From the NCBI GenBank assembly GCA_000004985.1, contig GG738894.1: a DNA stretch of 64,000 bases; one strand, 5' to 3'. Within the stretch, counting starts at the first letter, position 1. Every line of letters begins with the position of its first letter. Positions 34,755-61,955 of this stretch are shown piece by piece. Under the pieces are notes generated by a model. The model did no database searches. It worked only from the letters and a program-made list of their open reading frames with translations, and had not been told where the DNA came from. The position numbers were made by a program, and so were the translations under genes. The DNA comes from Naegleria gruberi (taxonomy: Eukaryota).

Positions 34755-36326
34755 CTACTGTTTAACTCTTTTAGAAATATCAGTTTCTTCAGTCGATTCT
34801 CTCTTTCTCTTCTCAGTTTCTTCACTATTGTAGTTTCTCACAATGTTTTCAATCACATTGTATGCTTCTAATATTTTCTTATTTTCAAAGCCCTGCTTAT
34901 CGAATATGTAATCAAATCTATGGGCTAATGATCTTGGCTCAAAGAATCCTCTCTCAGCCAGTTTACCAATGAGGGATGGATGGTTATTGAGAAGAAAATT
35001 GAAAAATTCTGTAAAATCCTTCTTGAAATTCTTCTCATAAACATCCACAAAGAATAATTCAATATTAGCACATGCTCTTTCTTCATCTTCTACCCTGACT
35101 CGGAGAGTATCTATAATAAGATCACTAATTAGTCTGGAATAGGAATAGGTAACGTGTGTCATTGTACTGCTTGTAAATTTAGGTAATTTGTAGAAATAAT
35201 GCTTTTCCAAGAGATTCCATAATTGAGTATTTGAGTAGTGATTAACAATTGCTATGCAGAAAAATGAATACACTCTGTAAGATACATCAAAGAGATGACC
35301 TCCATTCTCAAGAATCATTTCAACATTTTCAATCAAATCATCCTCATCCTTTGAAAATGCTCTTTGCAGTAAAGTATCAACAAGAGTATTAGAGAGGATT
35401 CCATACATTTTCAAAGAATTATCAATGAGTGTTCTTGTGGGTACACTCTCATCATAATAAGACGGAGTACTAAGTGGTACTAGAGTTACATGTTTTGGAA
35501 TTTCGATTCCATACTGCAGAGGCCCAAAGTGAGAAAGACCTTTTGTGTAATTTAATCCCATCTTTTCCATTAAAACCAAATCTTGTTCAGTCAACTTATC
35601 CTCATTCTTATATTCGCCAAAACGAACCAAATCATGAAATACTAATTTGATAGATTTTGATTTTGCTCTTCCACAAAACATTCCTTCAATATCAGATAAT
35701 GTCATTCTACAGGATTGAAATAAAACACTCCTCAAATTGGTGCATTTAGAAAAATTCAAAGATTTAGCTTCGAATGAACATCCAACAAATGAAATATGTT
35801 CCACAGTCTCAAAAACAGTACAATCACTCATCCTAAATGTTATTCTATCGTTTGTGTTTTCTCTAATCGTCCTCTTATCATACATTAAATTATCCAGTAA
35901 ATCCTTTGTAATATGCAAATCAGAAAAGTGAATTCTTTTTGCATTTACAAATACAGTACTCAATAAATTTCTAAATTGTTTTAAAATTAAACTTTTTGAT
36001 GCCTTGTCACGAGAGGGAATTTCCTTCTCATCAGATAAAGCTGTTAGTTTAATTCTGGTTGGGAAGGAATTAGAGGTTATAGCAGACGAATCAAGTGCAA
36101 AGGCCGAAAGTGCAGAGAGTCTATTTTTTCCAGCAGTTTCTATTCGAAACTTTAACCATCTGGTCATCCGAAACTCATCATAAATTGCCAAGTGTTGTAA
36201 TGCTCCTTGATAAAAGTATGAATTGACCATTTGCATCCGAATACATTGTTCTACATTCAAATAGGAACAAATTTCTTGTACAACATTTGCTGTTATAGTA
36301 TCATGTGAAAACAAGAGAGATTGCAA
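34755..36326 (-). CDS. F-box-like domain protein (523 aa), 5' end unresolved
   Basis: N-terminal ITANVVQEICSYLNVEQCIRMQMVNSYFYQ fits the F-box pattern. The track start is TTG. The first in-frame ATG (MQMV) lies inside the F-box-like motif, so the true start is either non-ATG or on an unresolved upstream micro-exon. Acidic C-terminus. Confidence 0.5.
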   Translation of the reverse strand: MQSLLFSHDTITANVVQEICSYLNVEQCIRMQMVNSYFYQGALQHLAIYDEFRMTRWLKFRIETAGKNRLSALSAFALDSSAITSNSFPTRIKLTALSDEKEIPSRDKASKSLILKQFRNLLSTVFVNAKRIHFSDLHITKDLLDNLMYDKRTIRENTNDRITFRMSDCTVFETVEHISFVGCSFEAKSLNFSKCTNLRSVLFQSCRMTLSDIEGMFCGRAKSKSIKLVFHDLVRFGEYKNEDKLTEQDLVLMEKMGLNYTKGLSHFGPLQYGIEIPKHVTLVPLSTPSYYDESVPTRTLIDNSLKMYGILSNTLVDTLLQRAFSKDEDDLIENVEMILENGGHLFDVSYRVYSFFCIAIVNHYSNTQLWNLLEKHYFYKLPKFTSSTMTHVTYSYSRLISDLIIDTLRVRVEDEERACANIELFFVDVYEKNFKKDFTEFFNFLLNNHPSLIGKLAERGFFEPRSLAHRFDYIFDKQGFENKKILEAYNVIENIVRNYNSEETEKRKRESTEETDISKRVKQ

Positions 36327-36436: not shown

Positions 36437-38704
36437 TTACAATATGAGATAGTTCATTGAATTGGTCATCCAATCAATACAATAAAAATCAGAAATTACA
36501 AATATTTGATTGATAATTTCCAATCTGTTGGTGCATTTCATTAAATTGGAAGGAGGTTGCAAGTAAAGAAGGTCAACCAGGTCATTGAGATCTGATTCAT
36601 TGAGGGTAATGTCATTGTTAAGGATTATTTTGGAGGATAATCTCTCATTGAATTGTCCACTGATGAGTTTGGAGAAGAATTGGGAAGTGATTATGCAAAT
36701 TTCAGAGTCAATGGAGAGTTTCAAGTTTCGGTTCGTTTCTAATGTCAGAGTTAAATCACCCTTTCGTTTTCCACTTTTAATTTCCTCTCTCAAATAGGAA
36801 AAATAGTCCAATAAATCTTGCAATGGAAACTTAAAGTCAACTAAGGAAGCATGTTGAGAATCATTAGTTGAGTTTCTGACTTCTTCACAAATTGGCCTCA
36901 ATCTCGGAATGGATTCGCATAACATCAATTCCTCCTCAACATTATCCTTATTCGAAATTAGTGATTTTCTAATCCTATTAATGAGATAGGGATGAAGAGT
37001 TTGTTCTAATTTTTTGAATTGTAAAGTTGCCCTGAAAAGTTCAATCAAATCCAATAATTCAGCATTCAATTCTTTTCCTACGAGCCAATCTTTCAATAAT
37101 TCAACACAATTAACACTTGTTTCCATCTCAATTCCATTCTTTAATTGATCTTCCTTCATTAGTTCACTTTCGTCCAATCTTTTCATCAAAATTAAAGGTA
37201 TCAAGGATACGAATCCTTCTCTCGACTTTACAGGAATCTTTTTCATTGGTAAATTCGAATCTAGAAACCTTTCCATACCACCAATCAACTCTTGTTCACC
37301 ACAAATCTGTAAATCCAACTCAACCAAGGTGTCCAGATGAGGTTTCTCAACGCATGGATTATATCCACCAATTGAATAGCATTTCTTTTCAGAAAATATC
37401 AGAAACGAATCATAGTACATGTTCAATAAATTTGAATTGCTAATCTTGTACCATTGATTGGTGTGAATGTCAATAATCATCACTTCATTAATGTAATGTC
37501 TTCTGTCGTAGTGATCATTAATTAAACCATTCGAAACTATTAAATATCGATCCATGAATAAATTACCTCCCTTATTGTAAGATTTGATAAATTGTCGATT
37601 ATCATCATAAGAAATGAATCCTGATTTAACTAAATTTGGAGCACTAAATGCAGACCATTCCTTTTTTTGGAAGGAATAAATGTGGAGGGAGTTGGTGAGA
37701 GGACCGAAAGGTTTCTCTCTAGTCTTACCTGCATAGATTATCAATTCATCCTTTGATTCACAATACACAGAGGTGTGATAGGCAAGTTTAGTAAATTGTG
37801 GAGCAGTGGACGAAACTCTTTCGTTTGATGTAGACGAAAGAAGAGAAGAAGCAGAAGAGAAGAGCACACTTGGTACTTGAAGCATGGGATTCGCTGGTTT
37901 GATATTCATATCTTCTGATAGAAATTTCCATGTTTGACTGTCAAGATTAATCTCAATAATCTCATTCGAATATTGATCAGTGTTATATTCGTAACCTGCA
38001 ATAATGTACAGACAATCCTTTCGAATAAAACTTGAATGACCCTCTCTTCTTGGAAGTCTTTCCCTCGAATAGATATTTTTCTTTGAGATTCGAACAGGGT
38101 TTAGAATCGTCCATTCTTCAGTCTTTACGTCAAATTCGTATAGATTATTTGAGGAAATAACCGAACTTGTTCTTCCACCGAATACGTAAATCTTGTTTCG
38201 TTTAGGACAAGCACTCACCGAGTGATAGAAACAAGGATTCAGATAAATTCTACTATTAGTTGGAAGTTGATTCGTCTGATTGTTGGTAGACGAAAGTAAA
38301 GAAGGACCAACAAGTTGATTCTCAAATTCTCTACACTCTATGAATGATGGAAGTACTTTCCACTTTTTACTTTCTATATTATACTCCAAGAAACTATTCG
38401 AATTCAATTCTTTCCTCGTACTCCCGCCAAAAACATATATCTTTGAGTTTAGAATAACTGCCTTGTGTAGATGAATCCCAAATGGAAGGGAAGAAGGTAA
38501 ATCATTGGCGAGATTAGGATTATTTGTTGATTTTCTAATGGAAACTCGAGCCAAATCTTGTTTTTCCTCATAATTCGAATGTGGTTGAAAGAGAATTAAA
38601 TCAGCACCACTACTTGATGAAGAATCTTTTTGTAATTCTAACCAGTTTCCAACAGGCTTTGAGTTTCTTCCAAGTTTCGACTCTACACTTTGCAATACTC
38701 CCAT
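36437..38704 (-). CDS. Kelch-repeat protein with C-terminal BTB/POZ domain (LZTR1-like domain order)
   Basis: True ATG at 38704. Kelch blades in the N-terminal half (KIYVFGGSTRKELNSNSFLEYNIESKKWKVL, KIYVFGGRTSSVISSNNLYEFDVKTEEWTIL, LYIIAGYEYNTDQYSNEIIEINLDSQTWKFL). BTB near the C-terminus (DLTLTLETNRNLKLSIDSEICIITSQFFSKLISGQFNERLSSKIILNNDITLNESDLNDLVDLLY). Confidence 0.7.
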   Translation of the reverse strand: MGVLQSVESKLGRNSKPVGNWLELQKDSSSSSGADLILFQPHSNYEEKQDLARVSIRKSTNNPNLANDLPSSLPFGIHLHKAVILNSKIYVFGGSTRKELNSNSFLEYNIESKKWKVLPSFIECREFENQLVGPSLLSSTNNQTNQLPTNSRIYLNPCFYHSVSACPKRNKIYVFGGRTSSVISSNNLYEFDVKTEEWTILNPVRISKKNIYSRERLPRREGHSSFIRKDCLYIIAGYEYNTDQYSNEIIEINLDSQTWKFLSEDMNIKPANPMLQVPSVLFSSASSLLSSTSNERVSSTAPQFTKLAYHTSVYCESKDELIIYAGKTREKPFGPLTNSLHIYSFQKKEWSAFSAPNLVKSGFISYDDNRQFIKSYNKGGNLFMDRYLIVSNGLINDHYDRRHYINEVMIIDIHTNQWYKISNSNLLNMYYDSFLIFSEKKCYSIGGYNPCVEKPHLDTLVELDLQICGEQELIGGMERFLDSNLPMKKIPVKSREGFVSLIPLILMKRLDESELMKEDQLKNGIEMETSVNCVELLKDWLVGKELNAELLDLIELFRATLQFKKLEQTLHPYLINRIRKSLISNKDNVEEELMLCESIPRLRPICEEVRNSTNDSQHASLVDFKFPLQDLLDYFSYLREEIKSGKRKGDLTLTLETNRNLKLSIDSEICIITSQFFSKLISGQFNERLSSKIILNNDITLNESDLNDLVDLLYLQPPSNLMKCTNRLEIINQIFVISDFYCIDWMTNSMNYLIL

Positions 38705-39897: not shown

Positions 39898-41043
39898 TTA
39901 ATCATCCAATATTCCTATTGGTTTCATGGATGCTTGATAGTAATCCCAATCTTCATGATTATTTCTATCATGATGATTCTTTTGACAACAATTCTTCCAA
40001 CATTGAACACAAGAGAGGGCAATATTCTTTCCCTCTATTGGATTTGAAAAGTAAATTAAAACATTAAAGAAACCAACCAGTGGTGAAATAATTGTGTGAA
40101 TTAAACTCATGTAATTGGAATAATCTGTATCAGTAATGAAAAAGTTTGAAATTCTGTGAAAGGTTGGGATTATATAAATGAGAACCATCATGATTGGATA
40201 TCCCATCAATTTAGAATAGGCCTTAATTCTCTTTCCTTTTCTGTGATCATCATCTCCGATAGTACTCATACCAACTTTGAGTATAAACAATGATAAATTA
40301 ACTTCAATTATTGAAATACTACTTACCCTTTCCGAAATTCCTGCACACCTTCGCCAACACAATCATATACAACACCAAAACAAGTATAATTGAAATCCAG
40401 AGAGGTCCATAAAAAGCACCATAAGTCCAAGTAACTCCCATTGGTTTGTTCTGATCTATCCAACACCACTTTCCAGAATTTCCATAAGTACTTCCAATGA
40501 AAGGTAATCCAGTTAATAAACCAGAAACAAGAAAGACAATTGTGATGGAACAACCTTCAAATAAAAGTACTGATTTCTTCCTTGTTAATTTCCTTAGCAC
40601 AATGGATGAGAAGAGAAAGATGGCAATTACAACACTCCAAATGAAGAACCCTACAGAGAAGAATCTGTATCAATATTCAGCCATGATTATTTCATCACCA
40701 TCATCACATGGTAAATTAATTATGATCAAATCATCCAAGATATTCCTTAGTAAATAATAAGAAGAAATAACAACACTTACTGATTACAAACAGCCTGAAA
40801 TATACACACCCAATCTTGATCCGTCTTGTAGGCTGTATAGAGTGTTAGCAAGTGATTCAATGAAGCAAATAAGAGAAAGGTTTGCAAATAGGACAAGAAC
40901 CTCACTGATGGAAGCTTAAAAAACCTCCTCCGAAACACCACAATCACATAAATCAAGAATGAAAAACATGCAAGAGCACTCAGAAAGCCAGAGCATGCTC
41001 TCGCAAGTGCAATTGCTGTTTTCCACATATCTGGCGTCATCAT
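39898..41043 (-). CDS. seven-transmembrane GPCR, cAMP-receptor-like (Dicty_CAR-type) family; three exons 41043..40781, 40664..40327, 40274..39898
   Basis: Three track ORFs, each hydrophobic/TM-rich, chain through a GTAAGT donor (40780) and a GTAAGT donor (40326) with in-frame AG acceptors. Phases are consistent and the total is 326 codons. GNSGKWCWID motif in an extracellular loop is characteristic of the cAMP receptor-like family. The first acceptor is ambiguous: 40665/40666 (116-nt intron) or 40635/40636. Confidence 0.5.
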
Positions 41044-41499: not shown

Positions 41500-42708
41500 T
41501 TATTGTAAATGGCATGACTTTTTTTGTTTTTTCTTAAAAGCAGGATCATTCCACATATTGATACCTCTGACCATCACTTGGTGAAGGTCAGCCATTCCAC
41601 TATTGTTAATAGCACCTACTTCAACATAGGTGAAACATCCCATTCTTCTGGCCAGCAGTATTCCTTGCTCAGTACTTGATGGTTTTCTATGTCTCTTAAC
41701 CAGTAGCTCCCTTCTCTTGATTGGATCATCCCTTAAATCAGTTTTGGTACAAATCAGAATAATTAGACTATTTGGATGGAGGCGATTGATTTCAACAATC
41801 CATTTCGAATAAACGTTACGAAGGGAGGTCTCTAATGAACAGCTAAAGCAAATACAGAACATGTCAGTCCCAGGGTAAATATATCTGCGCAATCTTCAAT
41901 GTTTTGTTATAATAATTTAAAATCAATTGACTATTTGATAATTACCTATCGAATTCTGTAAATCATTCAATGAAGAGAATATTCTTAATTGACTTACCAT
42001 AATGTCCTTCAGAATCATGTAATTCCAAATGACAAACTCTTTCATCGACCAAACAATTCTTTGAGTAATTGTCAGATGAAGTTGTTGGTAAATGTTCATA
42101 TTGTGGAAACGAATCTGTACTAAACGTGTACAATAAACTGGTCTTACCAACAGTGTCATCTCCTTAATTCCCAATAATTTAATGAAAATAATTGAAAATA
42201 TTTCACACATACCCACTAGAACTATTTTGTAATGACTTGAAGTTACATTACTATTCAATTTGTAGTTTAGTATATCTTCCTTAGGTACATAAATATCATT
42301 CCACGCATAATAACCTTCAATTTCTCTCGTCAGCTCTTGCTGTTCTCTTTCTGCATTAATCATCCACTCTCCAACTAATTCAATCAAATGTTGCTTGTAA
42401 TTTTCAGTATATTCCACATGTTTAGTATAAAGTTCAGATTGTAAAATCACAACATCATATGTTCCTGTTGTCTTATTCCATCGGTTGGTCTTACTGGCCT
42501 CCGAAAACCAATGAATCCTCTCCATGTAATAATCTTTCCAATATTGATCTTCTGTTGTCAGTTGACATATTCTCAATTGTTTAGAAGCTAATTGTAATTT
42601 ACACAAATCTGTAATTTGCAGGAAGGAAAGAACCAATCGGAAAATGTCATCATTCAGCACAGAATTATTAATGTTGAATTCCGACTGTTTCTGTTTTTTA
42701 TGTATCAT
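41500..42708 (-). CDS. F-box-like domain fused to an atypical Rho-family small GTPase with polybasic tail and CAAX box; at least three exons (42708..42213, 42162..~41998, ~41893..41500)
   Basis: ORF 41923-42729 (track start GTG; first ATG 42708, MIHKK..) has the F-box-like LNDDIFRLVLSFLQITDLCKLQLASKQLRI. About 120 aa later it ends ..SSHYKIVLVG at a GTATGT donor (50-nt intron). It continues in frame as DDTVGKTSLLYTFSTDSFPQYEHLPTTSSDNY..LELHDSEGHY (G1 P-loop, switch regions). A GTAAGT donor at 41997 leads to exon 3 (ORF 41500-41892): RRYIYPGTDMFCICFS..WIVEINRLHPNSLIILICTKTDLRDD..FKKKQKKSCHLQ, with G4 TKTD, a polybasic tail and CAAX CHLQ. The exon 2/3 junction phase is ambiguous. An alternative weak donor AA|GTCAAT at 41994 gives a frame-consistent 353-codon model. 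Confidence 0.55.
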
Positions 42709-43027: not shown

Positions 43028-43711
43028 ATGCAAACTTCATCTCTTACAACAACATATCAAAAAGAATACCTCCACAACAACAAGATGCAACAACAACCAA
43101 AAGTCAACATTATCGAGCAAGGAAACATTTGGACCATTGAAAATCTTTACTCACCAGAAGAATGTCAACAACTCATCAAGATTTGTGAATCGAATGGATT
43201 TGTGGAAGCTCCATTCAATGCCAATATGGCCAAAGATACAAGAAATAACGATAGAGTGATTCTTGATTTACCACAACATGCTCAATTGTTTTGGGAAAGA
43301 GTTTCACCTTATTTACCTCAACATGCTTCTCAATTGGGAAATCAAGTATTGGAAAGTAATGCAAAATCTGGATTTCAATTGTTAAATCCAGGATTTTCGA
43401 ATAGATTGAGATTCTACAGATATAAGAAGGGTCAATATTTTGCTCCCCACACAGATGGTTGTTATTTTGATAATAGAGATAAATATGTGGACCAGTCATT
43501 CTTGACAATCTTGCTCTATTTGAATGATGTCAATAATGCTGGAGGAGAAACTAATTTTATTCAAAATGGAATCAAACATAGTGTTCAACCAAAGAGTGGA
43601 TCTGTGTTGATATTTGTGCATTGGAATTGTCACGAAGGTGCTGAGGTGACATCTTCTAATGCTTTGAAGTATGTTATGAGAACAGATGCAGTTTTTAGAA
43701 GAATTAAATAA
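43028..43711 (+). CDS. 2-oxoglutarate/Fe(II)-dependent dioxygenase, prolyl 4-hydroxylase-like (P4Hc)
   Basis: True ATG at 43028. HxD...H iron ligands (YFAPHTDG ... FVHWNCHEGAEV). Basic 2OG-binding residue in KYVMRTD. Typical ~225-aa jelly-roll size. Confidence 0.7.
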   Translation: MQTSSLTTTYQKEYLHNNKMQQQPKVNIIEQGNIWTIENLYSPEECQQLIKICESNGFVEAPFNANMAKDTRNNDRVILDLPQHAQLFWERVSPYLPQHASQLGNQVLESNAKSGFQLLNPGFSNRLRFYRYKKGQYFAPHTDGCYFDNRDKYVDQSFLTILLYLNDVNNAGGETNFIQNGIKHSVQPKSGSVLIFVHWNCHEGAEVTSSNALKYVMRTDAVFRRIK

Positions 43712-43771: not shown

Positions 43772-43842
43772 TGCATTAGCCGGGAGTCGAACCCGGGTCA
43801 CCAGCTTGGAAGGCTGGTATGATACCGTTACACTACTAATGC
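43772..43842 (-). tRNA. tRNA-Gly (anticodon UCC)
   Basis: Reverse complement reads GCATTAGTAGTGTAACGGTATCATACCAGCCTTCCAAGCTGGTGACCCGGGTTCGACTCCCGGCTAATGCA. Perfect 7-bp acceptor stem (GCATTAG/CTAATGC). Anticodon stem CCAGC/GCTGG with loop CTTCCAA. T-arm CCGGG-TTCGACT-CCCGG. No encoded CCA (eukaryotic type). Confidence 0.85.
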
Positions 43843-43930: not shown

Positions 43931-44011
43931 CGCAGACTGCAGGATTCGAACCTACGAAGGTTTCCCCAACAGATTTCAAGTCTGTCGCCTTAACCACTCG
44001 GCCAAGTCTGC
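43931..44011 (-). tRNA. tRNA-Ser (anticodon UGA) with long variable arm
   Basis: Reverse complement reads GCAGACTTGGCCGAGTGGTTAAGGCGACAGACTTGAAATCTGTTGGGGAAACCTTCGTAGGTTCGAATCCTGCAGTCTGCG. Perfect acceptor stem GCAGACT/AGTCTGC, discriminator G. Anticodon stem ACAGA/TCTGT, loop CTTGAAA. Long extra arm typical of Ser. GGTTCGAATCC T-loop. Confidence 0.85.
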
Positions 44012-44080: not shown

Positions 44081-45754
44081 TTATTGATTGGATTCCTTGT
44101 AGGATTGAGCTACTAACTTCATTAGTTCTTTTCGATCGAGATGTGGATTCTTATCTTTTAGTTTCTTGTAATTTTCCTTCATAAATAAATTATACTTGGT
44201 TGGTTGCTTGGTTTTTCCAATTGGTTCCAATATTCCAGTGCAAACTCCACACCTTTGTTTTGTGGTATCAACAGATTTGGAATGTCTCTTTACAATTGAT
44301 CCACAATCCGTGCATTGCCACTGATATTTATATTCAATATCGTATGAGTGGCAAGTCGTGATTGGAATGTCAGGATAGTATTTCTGAATAATTCCACCAT
44401 ATAAATAAAATGTTTTACCATGGCCTGTAATGCCGTCGAACATAAATGAAGCAGCATGACACATTTCGTGAGCTAGTGTATGAACAAGTCTCTCTTCACA
44501 ATCACAAACCTTTGTGGACATTTCAATGGCACATACCTTGATTTGTGATTTAGTGATTGTAAAGAGTTTACACAACCCAGCAGTTTTCCTCAAATGTTGA
44601 TTCCATAATAAATATGCTTTCCCTTTCAGATCTTTAGCCTTACCCTTTGTAACTTTCATAGCTGGAAGTTTGTTTTGGAAGCATACCTTGTTGAATTCGT
44701 CATAATATTTCTGTAATAAATCATCTCTGACCTTTTTGAATTTTTTGGCATCCATCTTTTCAAAAGTTAATGTCTTTGAATTTTTGGAACTTTTTGCTGG
44801 CTTTTTGTTAGTTAATATGGATTTTTCATGGAAATCATCATCATCGTCATCAATTTCAATAACATTGGTATCAATCTTGTTTTTTGGGTTGGATTTTGTT
44901 TTCGTTTTGGATTTCTTAATTTGTGGACTTTCTGCTTCCATTTCGTCATAGTCCTCATCATCGTCATCATCCTCTCCACTACTTTCAGCATATTCCTCAT
45001 CACTCTCCTCGTCAAAGTTGAAATCCTCTTCATCAGATGATATTGCTTCCTCCTCCTCCTCCTCAGAAGAATCACTCAGCTCAAAAGCATTCTTTTTCTT
45101 TTCCTCCTCCTCAAATTCCTCAATAATATCCTGCCCCACAATATCAGATTCTTTCACCCAAGTATTTTCACTACTTGGATATCCCTCCCATTTCACATAG
45201 TATTCAACAAGCTTATTTTTCACTCGTTTTTTAATGATCCTTTCAATGGAATAAACATCATCTTTCTCCTTATCCTTCTCAAAATCATATTCTTCCTCAG
45301 AATCTGAATGATCCTCAATCACTCGCTTTCCAAATGATTTTCTCGATTTTCTTCTCACTGGCGAAGTGTTTGCCATCTCTTCATCACTTTCATCATCATC
45401 ATCGGAAATAGCAATCACAACTCTTTCATTAAATTCATTTCCAGATTTTCCGTGATGGTGATGATCAGCAGCTTCTTGAGTGGCTAATAGTGGTGGTAAT
45501 GTTGCTTGCTCCTCCTGGAAATGTACAGTACTTCTTCTTGGTAATTCCTGCTCTTCTTCCTTCTTTAATAGTGCAATTGGTTGCTCAGGAAGAGTGTTAT
45601 CACTTTCGGAAAGGAGACCTTTTGGAAGAATCGTCTCTGGATTCGAAAAGAAATCATGCCAAGTAATTGAACGCCATCCAAATTCGTTACACATGTTCAA
45701 GTATCGATTACGAGTTACTTCATATGAAAATTCTTGTTCTTGATAAATATTCAT
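44081..45754 (-). CDS. SprT-like zinc metalloprotease of the GCNA/ACRC type (acidic disordered region, SprT HExxH domain, zinc finger, C-terminal HMG box) with an embedded chromodomain
   Basis: True ATG at 45754. Long D/E-rich tracts. Chromodomain DDVYSIERIIKKRVKNKLVEYYVKWEGYPSSENTWVKESDI. SprT motif LVHTLAHEMCHAASFMFDG (HEMCH). Cys cluster CTDCGSIVKRHSK...CGVC. HMG-box-like PTKYNLFMKENYKKLKDKNPHLDRKELMKLVAQSYK at the C-terminus. Confidence 0.7.
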   Translation of the reverse strand: MNIYQEQEFSYEVTRNRYLNMCNEFGWRSITWHDFFSNPETILPKGLLSESDNTLPEQPIALLKKEEEQELPRRSTVHFQEEQATLPPLLATQEAADHHHHGKSGNEFNERVVIAISDDDDESDEEMANTSPVRRKSRKSFGKRVIEDHSDSEEEYDFEKDKEKDDVYSIERIIKKRVKNKLVEYYVKWEGYPSSENTWVKESDIVGQDIIEEFEEEEKKKNAFELSDSSEEEEEEAISSDEEDFNFDEESDEEYAESSGEDDDDDEDYDEMEAESPQIKKSKTKTKSNPKNKIDTNVIEIDDDDDDFHEKSILTNKKPAKSSKNSKTLTFEKMDAKKFKKVRDDLLQKYYDEFNKVCFQNKLPAMKVTKGKAKDLKGKAYLLWNQHLRKTAGLCKLFTITKSQIKVCAIEMSTKVCDCEERLVHTLAHEMCHAASFMFDGITGHGKTFYLYGGIIQKYYPDIPITTCHSYDIEYKYQWQCTDCGSIVKRHSKSVDTTKQRCGVCTGILEPIGKTKQPTKYNLFMKENYKKLKDKNPHLDRKELMKLVAQSYKESNQ

Positions 45755-46136: not shown

Positions 46137-47120
46137 ATGAAAACTTTCCAATCTACAACTATTGCAATCATTGCAGCAACATGCATGCTCATTGCCATGA
46201 TGCTCTCATGCACCAATGCTCAACGTTTGTCTACTCAATTCGGTCACTTGATGAGCTCACAAGCTCTGATCAAGCAAATTAATTTGGATCCACAATCAAC
46301 ATTTAAAGCTCAATTGTATCCAAGATTTGAGTGGGGTCATGTGTTGGTGAAATTAAAATGAAGGTCAATGTGGTGCTGTTTGGGCAATGGTAAGTTTTTT
46401 AATTCCGATCTAAATGATCAATAATTATTATTTTGCAATTTCGAATATTAATTTTTATTGGAAACCATTTAGGTTCCAAGTGCTACAGTTTCTGATAGAA
46501 TGTGCGTTCAATCGAGTGCTAAATTCCAAGAAAGATTATCCACCCAATATATTTTGGAATGTGATACTAGAGATTTTGGATGTAATGGTGGTTATTTGAA
46601 TACTGAATTCGAATTTGAATTAAAGAGAGGTATTCCAACTGAAAAATGTGTTCCATACTCTGCTGTTAATGGTACTTTGGCTAATTGTCCATCCAAATGT
46701 GTCAATGGTGAACCATTAGTTTTATACAAGACTAAGGCAGTTCAAAACCTTACTGGAGAGCATGATATGCAACAAGCCATCTTACAAGGAGGAAGTATTA
46801 TGACAGAACTTGACATGTATCAAGATTTCCTCTATTATTCCAGTGGTGTCTATCAACATTCTGCAAATTTGAGACAACCAATTGCTAAGTTTGTTGTCAG
46901 AATTATTGGATGGGGAGTTGAAAATGGTGTTAAATATTGGATTGTTCCAAATATTTGGGGTAAAACATGGGGAATGCAAGGTTATATCTGGATTCGTGTA
47001 AGTATTGAAGGAAATTATTTTTAAATTTAATTTATAATATTTATTACAATTATTGTAAAATAGAGAGGTAATAATGAAAGTAATATTGAAAAGGATGCAT
47101 TCGCTTTCCAAGTTTACTAA
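46137..47120 (+). pseudogene. cathepsin B-like (papain-family C1) paralogue, copy A, with disrupted pro-region exon
   Basis: Signal peptide MKTFQSTTIAIIAATCMLIAMMLSC. Relative to copy B it lacks ~140 nt of the propeptide/mature junction and shifts frame, giving an in-frame TGA at ~46358 before the conserved NEGQCGAVWAM. Exon 2 (46473..46997) and exon 3 (47064..47120) are intact and introns (83 and 66 nt) are conserved with copy B. Catalytic Cys and His are substituted as in copy B. Confidence 0.45.
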
Positions 47121-47241: not shown

Positions 47242-47291
47242 NNNNNNNNNNNNNNNNNNNNNNNNNNNNNNNNNNNNNNNNNNNNNNNNNN
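47242..47291. other. scaffold gap (50 N)
   Basis: Run of 50 n immediately 3' of the phospholipase-B-like gene stop codon. Confidence 0.99.
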
Positions 47292-47293
47292 GT

Positions 47294-49002
47294 TTATTCC
47301 ACATGGCTGAACTTGGCAGGGCATTGACCATTCCAAACAAAGACTGGTTGATCAACACTGGTTGGTCCATTGATAATGTGAACAGTGTTAATGTCGAGAA
47401 TTGAAGAAACCTTAGTATCATAACCTCCACTGCAGCTTCTTGTAGCATCAGTAGCAGTTGGAGACAAATCATTTCTGCTCGAAATGGAATAGCCAGGTTG
47501 ACCAAGAGAAAGTGGATCATACTTCCAATTGTTATATCTAAGAAGATTCTTAATAGTATCAATTGAGTTGACCTTATTTTGATCTCTTCTAAAAATGTTA
47601 GCTCTAACACATGTTTCATAGGACAACATGTCTGAGGCATTTGGTCTCTTTAAGATTTCAGGATATCCAGAAATTGTGAAAACTTCCTTATAGAATGGAA
47701 CATTGTAACTAGGCCAGTATCCATAGCTGAGAATTTGAGTTTGATCAGCACCAATAACCTTTCCTGGAATTTGCTCAACAACCCAAAACAAGTCATTGGC
47801 AAGTGGTTGGCCAGGAACGAACTTTTTAGTATCCAAAACCATGAATTGATTATTGTAAGTACCAGAGTTATATTCAGAAAAGATTTTACTCCATGAAGGA
47901 GCATCATCAGCAAGTCTGTTGGCTAAAATAACTCTTTGCCAACACAACAATGATTCTGGTTTGAGTAAATCATATAAGGAAGTGTTGAAAATATTGTTGG
48001 AAGTCTCAATAACAACTAATCCATTTTGAGTAATGTAAAAATCATCATTTGAAGCAAGTGTAGCTGGGTAACCAGAGAATGTGACCTTTGGTGAAGCAAC
48101 CAATTTGTTATTGAAATTGAAAGTGTAAGTCTTATAGATACGACTGAAATTTTCAATGATATAATGATAATGGTTAGAAAACAAACTTACGTCATAGCTG
48201 CAAACACGAACCACGAATTATGTCCAAAGTAGATATTACTGAAATCTGGTGCGACCTTGAAGATGGCAGAGCAGTGACCATTGTCTCTGGCGAATTGTAA
48301 AATTTGAGCTGAGGTCATCTTGTTAAAATTTGGTCTGAAATCCTTCTTAACATTGACAATATCAAACAAGTCACCAGAAGCACTCATTACTTGCAATTCA
48401 GCATAACTAATTTTTTCTGAACTATTTGTAGTGGCATAATTGTAACCATCAAGCAAACCCTCCATTTGCAAATAAACAGTTCTGACCTGTTGCCAGAACG
48501 GATCGTTGGCATACTTGGCAGATGAATCTCTAACCCAAGCACGTTGAGACTCCAAGAAATCTCTCACATATTGTGGCATCTTCTTATCAGGATTCTCAGC
48601 CCACACATACGTATTCAAATTAACAAAGTGATTGTAAATTCTCTTCCTTGTCAAGACTCCTTCCAAATAACCGGCAGCATAACTTTGCAATTCATCCTTT
48701 ATCAATCCATTGGTTTCAATAGAGAGAACATCCCATCCTTTTGCCTCATAACTATCATCATAATGTGCTGCAGCAATACCCGATCGCAGATTATAAACTC
48801 CATTCCTAACTATGTAATTCCCATTTTCATAGTAAAAGGTGGCATCGAGAGCCAAAACCTTGTTGGAGGCTTCATTTAAAACACCACAAACAATCAAGAG
48901 TCCGAGGATAAGTAAAAGAAGTGGTGATTTGTTCATTTTTTTTTTATCAAGACTATTAATGTGAACCTTACGGAGATGTAAGCTATAGAATGGAATTTTC
49001 AT
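47294..49002 (-). CDS. phospholipase B-like protein (PLBD/LAMA family), two exons 49002..48191 and 48143..47294; probable signal-peptide start at ATG 48936
   Basis: Family-typical segments GWDVLSIETN, YAAGYLEGVLT, IYNHFVN. ORF 48187-49002 ends ..FAAMT at GTAAGT (48190). A 47-nt intron and acceptor TTTCAG rejoin the frame of ORF 47294-48214 (..RIYKTYTFNFNN..). 812+850 nt = 554 codons. MNKSPLLLLILGLLIVCG looks like the signal peptide. The stop lies 3 nt from a 50-N gap. Confidence 0.7.
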
Positions 49003-51466: not shown

Positions 51467-52716
51467 TCAAAGAGTCTCAAGCCCTCTGATTGATAATGGT
51501 AAACCTCTGGCATCAAGGTATTGCAACGAGTCCAAGTTGACTAGAAATTCAACTCCCTGATCATTAATAGAAGTTGCAGGAACAGAGAGTCTTTGGAGGT
51601 TTTTCATTTGGGAAAGATAAAGAGCTCCCAACTTGGTAATCATGTGATTTGTGCCAATTTGGAGATCTCGTAAACTGGCCATTTTAGAAATATATTCAAC
51701 TCCCTTATCGTTCATACAAGTGTTTGTTAAATTCAATTCTCGTAAATTAGTCAATTTAGAAATCAAGACTGCTCCTAGTTGACCAATCGGGTTATCGTTC
51801 AAAATGAGTGTCTTTAAAGTTTTCATTTTCACAAGATATTCAACACCTTCTGCATCAATTTCATTAAATCCCAAATAAAGAACTTCCAAACTGAGTATTG
51901 CTAAAGAATTTGGTTATTTTCTAAATGTAAACATTTCAAAGATGTTATTCTATATATGTGTTCCAACCCAATTCCACTAATATTAGTATTATTCAATCCA
52001 AGAAATGTCAAAGTTCTCATATTAGAAATGCATTCAGCATGTAAATTACCAATCTTGTTGAGCTCCAAATTAAGATGACTTAGTGATCCAAATTCTAATA
52101 ACAGATTGATGTCTTTCAGTTCTAATTCACAATTCACTAGCTCCAATAATTTCAAATGCTTCAATCTAGTCAAGTTCTTCAACTCTCCATTGTAATAATT
52201 CTTATCTAACTGTAATTCTTTTAAACTCTGAATTTGTGAAATATAGGAAAATACTTTTGGCTCCAAAACACAATGATCAATTTCCAATCTCTTTAAACCC
52301 TTCAATTTGGATACATAATATGAATTATCATCCGAAAGTAAACTCTTTTTCAATTTTAAAACTTGTAAATTTTCAAAATAGGGAAAACATTCCATCACCC
52401 CCAAACCAATCTCACAGAATTCTGCTCTTTCCATTCCAAAAAACAATCCATCGTCACAAAAATTCCAAAAATCTTCATTGGTTTGTAATTCCAATCCAAG
52501 TTTTCGTCCTACATTGAAAGAGAAGGGACATTCCCTTATAATTTGCTGCCACTTCTTACAAACTAGTCGGAAATAGGAAATCAATTCAATTCCTTCTATG
52601 AAAGGAAAGATGTTATCTCGTAATATGTCATCAGGCAGTCCGTAAAATTGTGATTGTATGGAAGAATGGAAGCACAAACACGAGTAGCTGGTAGTATCCT
52701 GATGTGTTGTTGACAT
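51467..52716 (-). CDS. F-box-like / leucine-rich-repeat protein, apparently frameshifted at ~51895 (sequencing error or pseudogene)
   Basis: True ATG at 52716. F-box-like LPDDILRDNIFPFIEGIELISYFRLVCKKWQQII followed by ~24-residue LRRs. ORF 51901-52716 stops at ..ENNQIL*. The downstream ORF 51467-51889 continues the LRR register (LEVLYLGFNEIDAEGVEYL...) but in the -1 frame. There is no room for an intron. Confidence 0.5.
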
Positions 52717-54527: not shown

Positions 54528-55639
54528 ATGGAAAGGAGAGTTGGAATATTGATGATATTCATCATCGGAATGGTTATTTGTATAATGATGAATGTTTCGG
54601 TGAATGGTCAACGTTTGTCGAGTGATTTTGGACATTTGGTAAACTCTCGGACACTGGTTAGACGAATTAATGAAAATCCAAAATCACCATTCAAGGCAAA
54701 ACTGTATGAAAGATTTGATTCTATTGCCAAGTTGATTAATTTATCGAGGAGAAATGGTGGCAGAAAATTTTCTATGAAAACTGTTCAATCAAGAAAGTTT
54801 AAACTTTCGAAAGGATTGGCAATTCCACCTGAATATGATTTGAGAAAGAATTGGTATCAATGTGTTGGTGATATTCAAAATGAAGGTCAATGTGGTGCTG
54901 TTTGGGCAATGGTAAGTTTTTTCCAATTATTTCAATTCTAATGTGAAATATTTCAATAATAATCTGCTCTATTTTCTAATTTAAACCATTAGGCTCCAAG
55001 TGCTACTGTTTCTGATAGAATGTGCATTCAATCTAATGCTAAATTCCAAGAAAGATTGTCCTCTCAATATATTTTGGAATGTGATACTAGAGATTTTGGA
55101 TGTAATGGTGGATATATGAATACTGAATTTGAATTTGAATTGAATAGGGGTGTTCCAACTGAGAAATGTGTGCCTTACATTGCCTTCAATATGACATTAC
55201 AACCTTGCCCAACTAGCTGTTTCAATTCTACTCAACCAATGGTTTTATACAAGACAAAATCAGTGCAAAATGTGACTGGAGAGTTGGACATGCAGCAAGC
55301 CATTTTGCAAGGAGGAAGTATCATGACTGAAATGGACGTTTATCAAGATTTTATATATTATTCCAGTGGAGTGTATGAACATGATCCATCTTTCACTCAA
55401 CCAATAGCGAAAACAGTTGCAAGAATTGTTGGTTGGGGAAGTTTGAATGGAGTTAATTATTGGATTGTAGCCAATGTTTGGGGGAAAACTTGGGGTTTGG
55501 ATGGCTACGTTTTGGTTCGTGTAAGTTATTTAGTGGCTTAATATTTCAATATAATCACTTGAATATTTATGTATTACTATAGAGAGGTACTAATGAGAGT
55601 AACATAGAAAAGGACGCATATGCTTTCCAAGTTTACTAA
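54528..55639 (+). CDS. cathepsin B-like papain-family homologue lacking the catalytic Cys and His (predicted secreted pseudoprotease), three exons 54528..54911, 54993..55520, 55583..55639
   Basis: Signal peptide MERRVGILMIFIIGMVICIM. Propeptide/mature junction PPEYDLRKNW. Active-site region reads QCGAVWAM where papain-like proteases have QCGSCWAF (catalytic Cys replaced by Val). Exon 1 ends there at GTAAGT. Exon 2 starts APSATVSDRMC (cathepsin B: GAVEAISDRIC). The His region reads KTVARIVGWG (cathepsin B: GHAIRILGWG). Asn retained (ANVWG). Exon 3 RGTNESNIEKDAYAFQVY. Confidence 0.65.
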
Positions 55640-58260: not shown

Positions 58261-61200
58261 TCAAAAACTTGGAAATTCTCTTTCCTTTGAAAGAGGAAAA
58301 CAATAAGACAAGTCCAGAAAATAATTATTCAATGGACACTCTAATAAAATAGTTTTTGAGACTTTTTCATTTCGAGATTGCTTGATACGGATAGTAAATC
58401 TTGGGCTTACAATATGTGGCATTTTCTCTTCTTGATTATTGAATAATTTGAAGCAATTCAAATTGAAAAGGCAACATGTATACACAAATGGACTTCTAAT
58501 GAGTGACTTAAATCTTTCTTCAAGATTAAACTCATTGTCGTCCTCTTCTATGTATTGATTGTAGGTATGGAAGAGCCAGTATGCTGCCTTGTGGTTGAGC
58601 TTATCCAAACTGTCTCCATCATGTTTGATAAAGACTTTCTCCCAGTTTATCTTATCTTCTTCAAGGCAATCTTTAATGCTTTCGAATAATTTCTGTTTGT
58701 GTGCTGAGAATTTATCAGAAAGGACAATCTCATCATTTTTTCTGGTTGACCAATAGAGTCTCCATTGTGAATACGCTTCCTTAAATTCATCTTTCCATCT
58801 TTGCCACTCTGAGGAGTATATTTCAGATGGGTTTTCAAAAACAGTGTCAAGTTGCTTTGTATCTGAAAAAACCATCCTATTGAATATATTTCTAATTAGG
58901 TCAAACATTCTTGCTTCGAATGTATCAAGTTCTATATGAGATTGGTCAGTAATCTTCAATTTGCAAAGTTCCATCCACTTTGGAGAATCCTTTTTTGGAA
59001 TTTCATACAACTGTTTAGCATTAAAAGCTGATCCCTTAATAGTATCAATGCTGTCGTGATACATTTTGGACAATTTAAGTTTGATATCTATTCCAACCTT
59101 GGAAGAATCTTCTCTCCAACACATTGTTTTAAGATAAACTTCTGAAATTTTTGATGATTGTTCCATCATTTCCAATACAGTTTTTCTTACATCTTCCATG
59201 CTTAGTGAATTTTTAACAGTTTTGGTCACCTTATTGGTGGCAGCTCCATCGTTATAATTCAATTTTGGTTTGAGATTTTGATCAAATAACTTGACAATTT
59301 CTGGATCGAAAATAATCTCATACAAGTCGCCATCCAAATCACCTCCTGCCATGTAGCATAATGGTTCTGGGACTTTCTTATAATTTGGATTGTGTCCAAA
59401 GACAATGACATCTCTTCTTGATTGGAGGAATTCTGTTGGGGGATGCTTGACCAACTTTAAGCATTGGATATCACCTTCATAGGCAAGAGGATTTCTATAG
59501 ACAAGAACCTTGTCAATTTTAGCATAATCTAAACTTCGAATCAACTTGGAGCATGGGATGTGAACTTCATCATGTTTCAAAGTCGAACTTTCATCATAAA
59601 CACCCATACCACTTAAAAACCCAGGATGTTTACATTTCATACTGAGCTTGTCACTAACCATGGATTCAAACTTGCTTTCAATATTGTCTTTTACAACGGA
59701 GGAAATAAAATAATTATCCAATGAATGTTCAGCCATTATTAAATCTCTAGCAATAGATTCTTGCGAAGTTTCTCCTGATTGAGAGAGGAGCACGTTGCAT
59801 AAATATTCTGGATTATCCTTATTCTCAACAATTTCCATTAATTGAGTTTCGTAAAAATTTTTGAACAATTTTTCCATTTCTTCTTCATTCGTAGTCATTT
59901 GCAGTAAGCAAGACATGATATTTCTATTAATATTGCCACCATGAACACGAGCAACATTCAATATATCAATCTTATTGTAAATTGAATAATTTCCTTCAAA
60001 TTTCACCATTGAATTTCTCAAAATGACTTTGGTATTGGATGGCAATTTGTGCTTTTTAAGTAATTCTGCCCACATTGATTTGTTAACCTTTTGAATGACT
60101 CCTTTGGCTCCCAAAATTCTTACCTGCATGGCACTGATGTTCTTGAAATTCTTTTCGAATAGTCTACCTTGTTTCGTATCTGATTCAAATAACTTGTCCA
60201 TAAAGAAATATGGAACAGAGTAGGTATTTTCCAGGACTTGTTCGAAGAAATCTTCAACAGCCATACCAGCACCATCAGTCACTGCAATATCATCTGAAAT
60301 AATTTGGATATCATCTTGTTTCCATTCCACAATACTTGGAGTACTAGTTCCCATACTCAATCCAACTCTACTAGCAACCTTTCTAGGTCCATGCTCCTCA
60401 GCTTTTTCAAAGGTACCCAACATTTGCTTCAATATTTCCAAATTCAACAATGTTGAGTTGTAAAAGATACAGGAATCACCTTTCAAACCAGAATTTGAAG
60501 TACCTAACAAACAATACTTATGACCTTCATGAACAATACCATAGGAGAGACAATATTCCTTCTTGCATTCTGAGAGTGCTTTCAGATCCTCTTTGGATGT
60601 AAAATCAAATTTTACAACCATTAAACATTTTCCCAAATTCAAACTCATTAAAATTCTTGCTAATCTTGAGAATGAATTCAAGATTGAGTAACGATTGGTT
60701 CCATCACCAATAATCGCATACTTTCCATTGTTTCCCTCCATTTTCTTCCATCTGTTTTTCACATGACAAACTAGTGGATAGAATTCACCAAAGAATTGTT
60801 CGTATCCACCAGCAACATTTGAATTGAAAAGTGATTGAAAAAGAGTTTGATTAGCTTGTGATTCAAACAGTTCCAATTCTCTGGCAAAGTATCTGTATCT
60901 CTTCATCAAGTATTCCAATGGATTCTTTGCTAAATCCATGGTGCTATCACACATATAGGAAATCTTTGCACTCAACTCTGAATATTGAACATTATCTATC
61001 TTGACAACAATCTTCCAAACATTCTTTCCAAAACCAAGAACATTCCAATCTTCCCAGCCGGTGATTGTTTGCAAATCTTCATCTCTCATTGGCAATACAA
61101 TAATCAATTTACCATTAACCNNNNNNNNNNNNNNNNNNNNNNNNNNNNNNNNNNNNNNNNNNNNNNNNNNGTTGATTGCATTAACCAATGTCTTTTGATC

Positions 61201-61407
61201 TCTCATTCCTCTCTCATGGACCAATAAAACTTGTTGAACAGTTGATGAATCACAGTTTTCCAATTTCAAATAAGTACGAATCTTTCGGAACAGAATATCC
61301 TTGATCTTCTCTGTAGCTCCAATCTTGATAGATGGAGGACCAGAAATTGTTGTGGATGGGGAAGTGTCCATCATGGAAAGGGTGAGTGGGTGGTTATTGT
61401 TGATCAT
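58261..61407 (-). CDS. cellular RNA-dependent RNA polymerase (RDR family), interrupted by a 50-N scaffold gap
   Basis: Catalytic signature CYMAGGDLDGDLYEIIFD (DLDGD) preceded by YRNPLAYEGDIQCLKLV, as in eukaryotic RdRPs of the RRF/QDE-1/RDR6 type. About 1050 aa. The ORF as listed starts at 61557, but the first plausible ATG is 61407 (MINNNHPLTLSMMDTSPS..) or MMDTSPS at ~61374. Gap 61121-61170 lies inside the N-terminal region. Confidence 0.75.
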   Translation of the reverse strand: MINNNHPLTLSMMDTSPSTTISGPPSIKIGATEKIKDILFRKIRTYLKLENCDSSTVQQVLLVHERGMRDQKTLVNAINXXXXXXXXXXXXXXXXXVNGKLIIVLPMRDEDLQTITGWEDWNVLGFGKNVWKIVVKIDNVQYSELSAKISYMCDSTMDLAKNPLEYLMKRYRYFARELELFESQANQTLFQSLFNSNVAGGYEQFFGEFYPLVCHVKNRWKKMEGNNGKYAIIGDGTNRYSILNSFSRLARILMSLNLGKCLMVVKFDFTSKEDLKALSECKKEYCLSYGIVHEGHKYCLLGTSNSGLKGDSCIFYNSTLLNLEILKQMLGTFEKAEEHGPRKVASRVGLSMGTSTPSIVEWKQDDIQIISDDIAVTDGAGMAVEDFFEQVLENTYSVPYFFMDKLFESDTKQGRLFEKNFKNISAMQVRILGAKGVIQKVNKSMWAELLKKHKLPSNTKVILRNSMVKFEGNYSIYNKIDILNVARVHGGNINRNIMSCLLQMTTNEEEMEKLFKNFYETQLMEIVENKDNPEYLCNVLLSQSGETSQESIARDLIMAEHSLDNYFISSVVKDNIESKFESMVSDKLSMKCKHPGFLSGMGVYDESSTLKHDEVHIPCSKLIRSLDYAKIDKVLVYRNPLAYEGDIQCLKLVKHPPTEFLQSRRDVIVFGHNPNYKKVPEPLCYMAGGDLDGDLYEIIFDPEIVKLFDQNLKPKLNYNDGAATNKVTKTVKNSLSMEDVRKTVLEMMEQSSKISEVYLKTMCWREDSSKVGIDIKLKLSKMYHDSIDTIKGSAFNAKQLYEIPKKDSPKWMELCKLKITDQSHIELDTFEARMFDLIRNIFNRMVFSDTKQLDTVFENPSEIYSSEWQRWKDEFKEAYSQWRLYWSTRKNDEIVLSDKFSAHKQKLFESIKDCLEEDKINWEKVFIKHDGDSLDKLNHKAAYWLFHTYNQYIEEDDNEFNLEERFKSLIRSPFVYTCCLFNLNCFKLFNNQEEKMPHIVSPRFTIRIKQSRNEKVSKTILLECPLNNYFLDLSYCFPLSKEREFPSF
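61121..61170. other. scaffold gap (50 N) inside the RdRP gene
   Basis: Run of 50 n; translated as X in the ORF track. Confidence 0.99.
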
Positions 61408-61955
61408 CACAAATATTATAATTTGTCTGGTTGAGTAGTTGTTGTTGATTTGTTTTTTTTGATTTTGAAAATTGTGTGATGTGGAGAATTCCCAATTAAA
61501 AACCCAAATTTTTGTTTTCCAGATCAAAAGAACGAGAATATTTGTTTCTCTCAACAAATCTCAAAAGAGGCAATGAGAACAAAACCATTTTACAGTACCA
61601 ATTACATTCAGTAGAATATTTGGATAATCACAATTGATCTCAACAAGGGATATTCATCTAATAATCGGTAGTGTTAGCCCAATTTGTTCCCCATTGATTG
61701 GCGAGTGTTTTCTTCTCCACATACTTTTTATCATCAATTGATTAACCCCCTCTTTGTATTGTTCCTCCTCTTCGGAAGAATGATATCAACATGTATTACT
61801 CTAGAGAATCATATTAAGTGTTATTGTGATTTCTTAAGGGATTTTTTTTTCTTCTAAACAACATACCTCATCCTTTTGGATGAAGAATATGAGTAGGCTT
61901 TTGTCTATTAGGTGACAATTATCAACGGTGTTTTATAGTTCCATATCCAAACACC

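Follow-up and report, generated by a model that had tools for sequence, protein, structure and literature searches.

Whether a small GTPase can be joined directly to a ubiquitin ligase within a single polypeptide, and what such a protein might do, are questions raised by one gene in a 64,000-nucleotide stretch of the Naegleria gruberi genome (contig GG738894.1 of assembly GCA_000004985.1), referred to here as the window. On the minus strand, at positions 42708..41500, this gene is predicted to encode a product of 354 amino acids in which an F-box-like region, a family-specific linker of about 100-110 residues, a G domain of Rac type, and a polybasic tail ending in CHLQ follow one another in that order. 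An initial annotation, made from the sequence alone, had placed the coding region at 41500-42708, and these bounds are correct, as are its coordinates for the F-box-like peptide, the P-loop, switch II, and the tail. It had also implied that the domain combination was new. The combination has already been described (Herman et al. 2021, BMC Biol 19:142, PMC8296547), and the protein is not of a new kind. The gene is an intact paralogue of an F-box–Rac family found in Naegleria and Willaertia.

A continuous reading frame from F-box to G domain

On the evidence of sequence comparison, the fusion of F-box and GTPase is real, because the first exon enters the G domain, the relatives are collinear, Ras and F-box domains co-occur in them, one member lacks introns altogether, and the position of the first intron is conserved. 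The coding region as a whole is supported by its open reading frame (ORF) and splicing, by a match of residues 161-335 to the Pfam Ras model (E=3e-29), a check that the initial annotation had proposed, and by collinearity with the N. gruberi protein XP_002672610.1.

Exon 1 (42213..42708) begins with an ATG at 42708 that is preceded by an in-frame stop, and its 165 codons encode LNDDIFRLVLSFLQITDLCKLQLASKQLRICQL...EDQYWK and continue stop-free up to KIVLVG, the segment that forms strand beta-1 and the first glycine of the P-loop. From the reading frame and homology, its translation (MIHKKQKQSEFNINNSVLNDDIFRLVLSFLQITDLCKLQLASKQLRICQLTTEDQYWKDYY..., then a linker of approximately 100 residues, ending ...SSHYKIVLVG) can be divided into the N-terminus, the F-box (residues 18-61), the linker (residues ~62-160), and KIVLVG. 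The passage in one frame from an F-box-like region into a Rho-family G domain, as first proposed, is thereby borne out. Intron 1 (42163..42212; GTATGT...TTAAG, 50 nucleotides, phase 1) is a GT..AG intron whose junction had been correctly drawn at 42213/42162, and its removal in phase produces GDDTVGKT. Exon 2 (41998..42162), which runs from (G)DDTVGKTSLLYTF... to ...LELHDSEGHY, contributes the P-loop, switch I, and, from switch II, the segment DSEGH, as judged from its translation and alignment with Rac1.

The interval between exon 2 and the last exon is more complicated. The initial annotation had bridged it with a single junction, 41997/41893, giving two short introns in total. An exon 2 ending at 41997 needs an intron starting with TA, and use of the canonical GT at 41997-41996 with this junction throws the sequence out of frame and into a stop. 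All GT donors and AG acceptors in the interval from DSEGH to YPGTD were enumerated, and the open products were scored against a hidden Markov model (HMM) derived from 119 proteins of the Rho, Rac, and Cdc42 types. Four GT/AG solutions leave the frame open. The top score, 158.5 bits, belongs to a model in which introns at 41997-41956 and 41945-41894 flank a predicted micro-exon of 10 nucleotides; where one intron uses the weak donor GTCAAT at 41993, the score drops to 143.9 bits, and the earlier two-intron model, at 138.2 bits, was rejected as either non-canonical (TA) or frameshifted. Three canonical introns are thus more likely than two.

In the preferred model, intron 2 (41956..41997; GTAAGT...TTTACAG, 42 nucleotides) and intron 3 (41894..41945; GTAATT...TTGAAG, 52 nucleotides) enclose the predicted micro-exon AATTCGATAG (41946..41955), the best-scoring canonical splice solution, which completes the E-F-D-R of switch II. 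The junction then reads DSEGHYEFDRLRRYIYP / DSEGHYEFDRLRRYIYPGTD, the Rho switch II motif HYEFDRLRRYIYP is restored, and this part of the product aligns without gaps both to Rac1 and to the paralogues. The 104-nucleotide interval as a whole is about twice as long as the other introns of this gene and its paralogue (47-53 nucleotides). The last exon (41500..41893) supplies the remainder of the G domain, including the G4 motif TKTD, the Rho insert DDPIKRRELLVKRHRK, and the G5 motif GAI, followed by KKKQKK and CHLQ, as read from its translation and the Rac1 alignment; it ends ...FKKKQKKSCHLQ / NDPAFKKKQKKSCHLQ-stop, with the stop codon at 41502-41500. The introns contain 17-26% GC and are markedly richer in A+T than the exons, and the probability that 354 codons would remain open by chance at the local base composition is ~2e-13. 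A gene of four exons and three introns encoding 354 residues is the most likely model from these comparisons. The continuity of F-box and GTPase does not depend on this choice, since all workable models leave the frame open. The micro-exon, for its part, may explain why automatic annotation of the gene could have failed.

Relatives of the window protein

In a word-indexed homology search, the full protein matched nothing but ordinary Rho, Rac, Cdc42, and Rho3 proteins, over the C-terminal half, so that the F-box–Rac family was missed. When exon 1 alone was used for an exhaustive HMMER search, 39 relatives were identified. Among the 40 sequences then scanned with Pfam (these relatives together with the window protein), a Ras domain is found in 24, an F-box model is matched by 23-24 with a best E-value of 5e-22, and 10 carry an additional N-terminal Kelch propeller. 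The assignment of the N-terminal region to the F-box, for which an HMM check had been suggested at the outset, therefore stands at the level of the family.

The closest relatives are collinear over their full length. In N. gruberi these include XP_002672610.1 (39% identity over 345 residues, E=5e-77), XP_002680373.1 (36%, E=5e-64), and a revised XP_002678060.1 (36%, E=4e-67); in Naegleria fowleri, XP_044568862.1 and XP_044569419.1 are each 39% identical. Collinear F-box–Rac proteins are also present in Naegleria lovaniensis and Willaertia magna, so that the search for the same architecture in related genomes, another of the checks originally envisaged, gave a positive result. In these relatives BLAST similarity spans the F-box, the linker, the G domain, and the tail. 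One N. lovaniensis member of 356 residues is a single ORF with no introns, and the fusion is therefore independent of splicing.

Gene structure provides a further point of comparison. An environmental contig (L002; ENA metagenome contig ERZ929261 k127_303396) carries a Kelch–F-box–Rac gene that is at least 90% identical to XP_002672610.1, and intron 1 of the window gene occupies the identical codon position and phase in this paralogue. Prokaryote-style gene calling had cut the contig gene at each of its two introns, giving three ORFs. In place of the second and third introns of the window gene, the paralogue has a single intron (1765-1813) that lies elsewhere, a few bases away, and it has no micro-exon.

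These proteins belong to a group that has been catalogued. In the re-annotation of Ras-superfamily genes from N. gruberi and N. fowleri by Herman et al. (PMC8296547), Naegleria proteins in which the F-box is joined to a Rab, Rho, Ran, or Gα domain were reported (Additional files 4 and 10), and GTPase-dependent ubiquitination was suggested for them (Additional file 4). Table S8 of that work (Additional file 10) includes, for N. gruberi, several entries named "Rac" that have an F-box or Kelch plus F-box, and the genes listed as Rac with F-box are collinear homologues of the window gene. The window protein shares with them the succession of F-box, linker, Rac G domain, basic stretch, and C-x-L/I/V-Q ending, with 36-39% identity over ~340 residues; intron 1 is common to them, and the positions equivalent to Gly12 and Gln61 of Ras are often substituted. 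It is set apart from them by the combination of G12D, A13T, A59E, and Q61H. Unlike XP_002672610.1, moreover, the window gene has no Kelch propeller: one was sought upstream and none was found, a divergently transcribed 2-oxoglutarate (2OG) oxygenase gene beginning 320 bp upstream.

The F-box region

We conclude from profile comparison and structure prediction that the N-terminal region is probably homologous to the F-box. The core motif LNDDIFRLVLSFLQITDLCKLQLASKQLRI (residues 18-47; 42568..42657) corresponds to three short helices. A family profile of 66 columns, constructed from 35 members and compared with the PDB, retrieves hardly anything but F-box proteins, which make up all 16 of its top 16 matches, led by FBXO3 (E=4e-7) and FBXL5 (6e-4), with FBXO4, beta-TrCP, FBXW7, and FBXW11 following. 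The N-terminal positions conserved across the family, D21, L30, L35, K43, D54, and W57, are kept in the window protein.

Structure prediction, also among the checks first proposed, gives a mixed answer. Prediction with AlphaFold2 (AF2) from the single sequence of the N-terminus was uninformative, with a predicted local distance difference test (pLDDT) score of 36.8, and the family alignment was needed. With that alignment the overall pLDDT is 83.6 and exceeds 93 for residues 20-70, where helices at 20-27, 32-41, and 46-52 are predicted to form a three-helix F-box region; a fourth helix comes next in the model, and the linker has a beta-hairpin (74-87) and a long helix (104-134). When the model is submitted to Foldseek, F-box proteins bound to Skp1 rank first, yet with E>1, so that the fold match is not significant.

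Compared with canonical F-box proteins such as FBXO3, FBXL5, FBXO4, beta-TrCP, FBXW7, and Skp2, the region has a motif of about 45 residues, predicted to form three helices, that lies near the sequence consensus. A difference lies in what follows, as a small GTPase takes the place of the WD40, leucine-rich repeat (LRR), or other substrate-binding domain.

The G domain and its tail

The G domain retains the features required to recognize it as a member of the Rho family. Its P-loop (GDDTVGKT, residues 166-173) fits the G1 pattern GxxxxGK[ST], and the G3, G4, and G5 motifs read DSEG, TKTD, and GAI versus DTAG, TKLD, and SAL in Rac1, the first residue of G5 being degenerate. The Rho insert helix between beta-5 and alpha-4 is present with no loss of length (DDPIKRRELLVKRHRK versus DDKDTIEKLKEKK in Rac1). 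In a database of 5.8 billion sequences, the proteins nearest to the G domain, 38-41% identical, belong to Rac, Cdc42, and Rho3, and the best PDB matches of the family profile are Rac1 and Cdc42, with E~4e-69.

Alignment with human Rac1 shows that Gly12 is replaced by Asp, Ala13 by Thr, Ala59 by Glu, and Gln61 by His. The classical catalytic Gly12 and Gln61 are accordingly both absent, as the initial annotation had noted. Substitutions at these two positions in Ras and Rho proteins lower both intrinsic hydrolysis of GTP and that stimulated by GTPase-activating proteins (GAPs), and the Rnd and RhoH proteins are GTP-locked owing to substitutions at the same positions. By analogy, it is a fair prediction that intrinsic and GAP-stimulated hydrolysis would be poor in the window protein. 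The substitutions place it among the atypical members of the Rho family, still within that family, and the analogy drawn at first with atypical, hydrolysis-deficient Rho proteins seems reasonable in the light of these residues.

The pattern extends to the family. In the alignment of heterolobosean F-box–Rac proteins, the P-loop Lys/Thr, DxxG, and NKxD are mostly kept. Gln61 is retained in only about 5 of the 18 alignable members, with replacements that include Pro (four), His (two), Ser, Gly, Leu, and others, and Gly12 is retained in only about half of the alignable members. The P-loop of XP_002680373.1, GDDQVGKT, has the same G12D substitution as the window protein.

The C-terminus consists of a polybasic stretch, KKKQKK, and then the CAAX box CHLQ, in agreement with the tail originally proposed. 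CHLQ conforms to the C-x-[LIV]-Q ending that recurs among family members. CAAX boxes in which X is Q, S, M, or A are substrates of farnesyltransferase, and since X in CHLQ is Gln, farnesylation is predicted from these established rules.

Relationship to other atypical Rho proteins

Two groups of Rho proteins offer instructive comparisons. The first is RhoBTB. RhoBTB proteins bind Cul3 and, like the window protein, combine an atypical Rho G domain with an adaptor domain for a cullin-RING ligase in one polypeptide. The two differ in the adaptor and in its placement: RhoBTB proteins carry tandem BTB domains (the Cul3 route) C-terminal to the G domain, whereas the window protein has an F-box (the Cul1/Skp1 route) at its N-terminus and ends in a CAAX tail. 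Pfam shows no BTB domain in the window protein, whose C-terminus extends only 19 residues past the G domain, and because it has no BTB domain it is not a RhoBTB. RhoBTB itself, as a Rho domain fused to a cullin-RING adaptor in metazoa, in Dictyostelium (RacA), and in Naegleria, is cited in PMC8296547 (Additional file 4).

The second group comprises Rnd1-3 and RhoH. In these, as in the window protein, the equivalents of Ras residues 12 and 61 are substituted and the nucleotide pocket is otherwise intact; in the Rnd proteins the CAAX box, too, is of the farnesyl type. The resemblance does not reflect orthology, as the window G domain is nearest to Rac and Cdc42 generally, with ~40% identity to Rac1, and Rnd and RhoH proteins, unlike the window protein, have no F-box.

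Proposed function and alternatives

What could a protein built in this way do? The leading proposal, for and against which the probabilities are about evenly balanced, is that a farnesylated, hydrolysis-impaired Rac module either tethers a ligase of the Skp1–Cul1–F-box (SCF) type to membranes or is itself controlled by one. In this scheme, the CHLQ tail would be farnesylated at a box in which X is Gln and, with the basic patch, would anchor the protein on a membrane; the G domain would hydrolyze GTP slowly, would be insensitive to GAPs, and would be mostly in the GTP form; and the F-box would bind Skp1–Cul1–Rbx1. Anchored in this way, the protein would act at the membrane as a substrate receptor for SCF, with targets bound by its Rac domain in the GTP form. 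Alternatively, the F-box may link the turnover of the GTPase itself to SCF. Either arrangement would be the Cul1 counterpart of RhoBTB–Cul3. The functional suggestions of the initial annotation, a constitutively GTP-bound protein and a link from SCF to a prenylated scaffold, are likewise hypotheses. A broader generalization can be offered only tentatively, and is rather less probable than its opposite: that heterolobosean F-box–Rac proteins as a class, the window copy included, reside at membranes, farnesylated and locked in the GTP form, as SCF substrate receptors with a small GTPase where a WD40 or LRR domain usually binds the target. The RhoBTB–Cul3 principle would then have been reinvented independently on the basis of Cul1.

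Several observations weigh against these proposals. In the window copy, the N-terminus falls below the Pfam cut-offs, scoring 16.3-17.5 bits (E=0.004-0.009) against a cut-off of 20.5 for the F-box model and 14.6-16.1 bits against 24.3 for the F-box-like model. At the start of helix 1, where canonical F-box proteins carry Leu-Pro, the window protein and the whole family (consensus LNDD) carry Leu-Asn, and because the canonical Pro is Asn, binding to Skp1 is uncertain for the family. Switch I, the effector loop, diverges from that of Rac1 and is one residue longer, so that interaction partners are not predictable. Finally, no identical protein was found in the 5.8-billion-sequence database, and none of eleven peptide strings from the window protein occurs in the supplements of Herman et al., including the sequences of Table S8. 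By these comparisons, which for Table S8 cover the sequences written out there, the window copy is probably unannotated.

These observations bear on two alternatives of similar standing, each unlikely. According to one, the gene is a decaying or non-expressed duplicate within a family undergoing birth-and-death evolution, its frame still open but its function lost, and its catalytic substitutions reflect relaxed constraint rather than a GTP-locked design. The lack of an identical protein in public sets and of the sequence in the re-annotation's Table S8 would fit this view, as would the dependence of an intact switch II on an unusual 10-nucleotide micro-exon and the distance of the closest relatives, which are merely 36-39% identical; putative pseudogenes and rapid birth-and-death evolution have in addition been flagged in related Naegleria F-box–Rab-like groups (PMC8296547). 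The state of the gene itself argues otherwise. So long an open frame is hardly expected by chance in A+T-rich DNA, the splice sites are all canonical with introns that are A+T-richer than the exons, the nucleotide-binding motifs, Rho insert, polybasic stretch, and CAAX box are intact, and the conserved residues of the N-terminal region are all retained.

The other alternative, likewise improbable, concerns the N-terminal region, which might be derived from an F-box but no longer bind Skp1, having become a family-specific module for interaction, dimerization, or autoinhibition attached to a Rac-like switch with no role in a ligase. The family-wide Asn in place of the Leu-Pro Pro, the sub-threshold Pfam scores of the window copy, the conserved ~100-residue linker with its hairpin and long helix behind the motif, and the lack of a significant match in fold searches are all compatible with such a module. 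They are opposed by the family profile, whose top PDB matches are F-box proteins without exception, by the many paralogues that pass the Pfam F-box models, and by the Kelch propeller found upstream in some relatives, which is consistent with a true SCF receptor. Kelch propellers serve as substrate-binding domains in other F-box proteins.

That the F-box ORF and the GTPase are separate products of different mRNAs is highly improbable, as exon 1 holds beta-1 and the first P-loop glycine and leaves the G domain without a start of its own, the relatives are collinear, one of them as an intronless ORF, and intron position and phase are conserved.

Genomic context

The window has a G+C content of 33%; positions 1-16943 are N, and gaps of 50 N lie at 47242-47291 and 61121-61170, the latter interrupting an RNA-dependent RNA polymerase ORF at 58261-61557 (PF05183, 1.6e-59). 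The 2OG-Fe(II) oxygenase gene upstream of the F-box–Rac gene (43028-43711, plus strand) encodes a protein of 227 residues resembling prolyl 4-hydroxylase (P4H; PF13640, 2e-11; PDB P4H chains, 2e-5) and is divergent from the F-box–Rac gene, with ~320 bp between them. A cytoplasmic P4H hydroxylates Skp1 in Dictyostelium and Toxoplasma. Further upstream, an adjacent pair of minus-strand tRNA genes, tRNA-Gly(TCC) at 43772-43842 and tRNA-Ser(TGA) at 43931-44011, separates the oxygenase gene from a gene with Chromo, SprT-like, and HMG-box domains (44081-45754).

Other genes of the window carry F-box or Kelch sequences. On the same strand as the F-box–Rac gene and 2.8 kb downstream of it, 36437-38704 encodes a Kelch-repeat protein of 755 residues (Kelch_1, 3.5e-28); it was considered as a missed exon of the F-box–Rac gene and ruled out, the order being wrong. 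At 51467-52716 and 62353-63300, both on the minus strand, an N-terminal F-box-like motif (weak matches) precedes leucine-rich repeats (LRR_6, 1.7e-34), and a 523-residue ORF at 34755-36326 (minus strand) has an F-box-looking start and no Pfam match. The N. gruberi genome shows an abundance of F-box genes, and the other F-box/LRR and Kelch genes of the window are typical of it.

Directly downstream of the F-box–Rac gene, a multi-exon gene (39898-41043, minus strand) has hydrophobic segments of seven-transmembrane type and gave nothing significant when fragments were compared with Pfam; it contains a WCWID motif that we take to resemble those of cAMP-receptor-type G protein-coupled receptors. 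Two closely similar ORF fragments about 8.5 kb apart, at 46500-47024 and 55020-55541 (both plus strand), look by eye like the C-terminal halves of papain/cathepsin-type cysteine proteases, and the pair suggests a local duplication. One of these protease-like fragments adjoins ORFs at 47294-49002. An ORF for a pyridoxal phosphate-dependent dehydratase at 49090-50121 matches an N. gruberi protein with 100% identity, which assigns the window to that species, and has counterparts with 57% identity in N. lovaniensis and 55% in N. fowleri.

Implications for the family

The direct coupling of a small GTPase to a cullin-RING ligase makes for a biologically attractive architecture, and the only description of it that was found comes from the supplement to a single genome paper. 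To this description the window copy contributes an apparently missed N. gruberi gene model with a predicted 10-nucleotide micro-exon and a clean case of G12D combined with Q61H, in which the nucleotide pocket is intact and the CAAX box is of the farnesyl type. Comparison across the family adds that the catalytic Gln has been lost in most of the alignable members. If both Skp1 binding and GTP-locking are true, the family would stand to Cul1 as RhoBTB does to Cul3 and would offer a tractable entry into GTPase-dependent ubiquitination. Should these proteins further be GTP-locked receptors, Naegleria would have a large and fast-diversifying system of "GTPase-addressed" ubiquitination at its membranes, and the widespread loss of Gln61 would represent adaptive design rather than decay.

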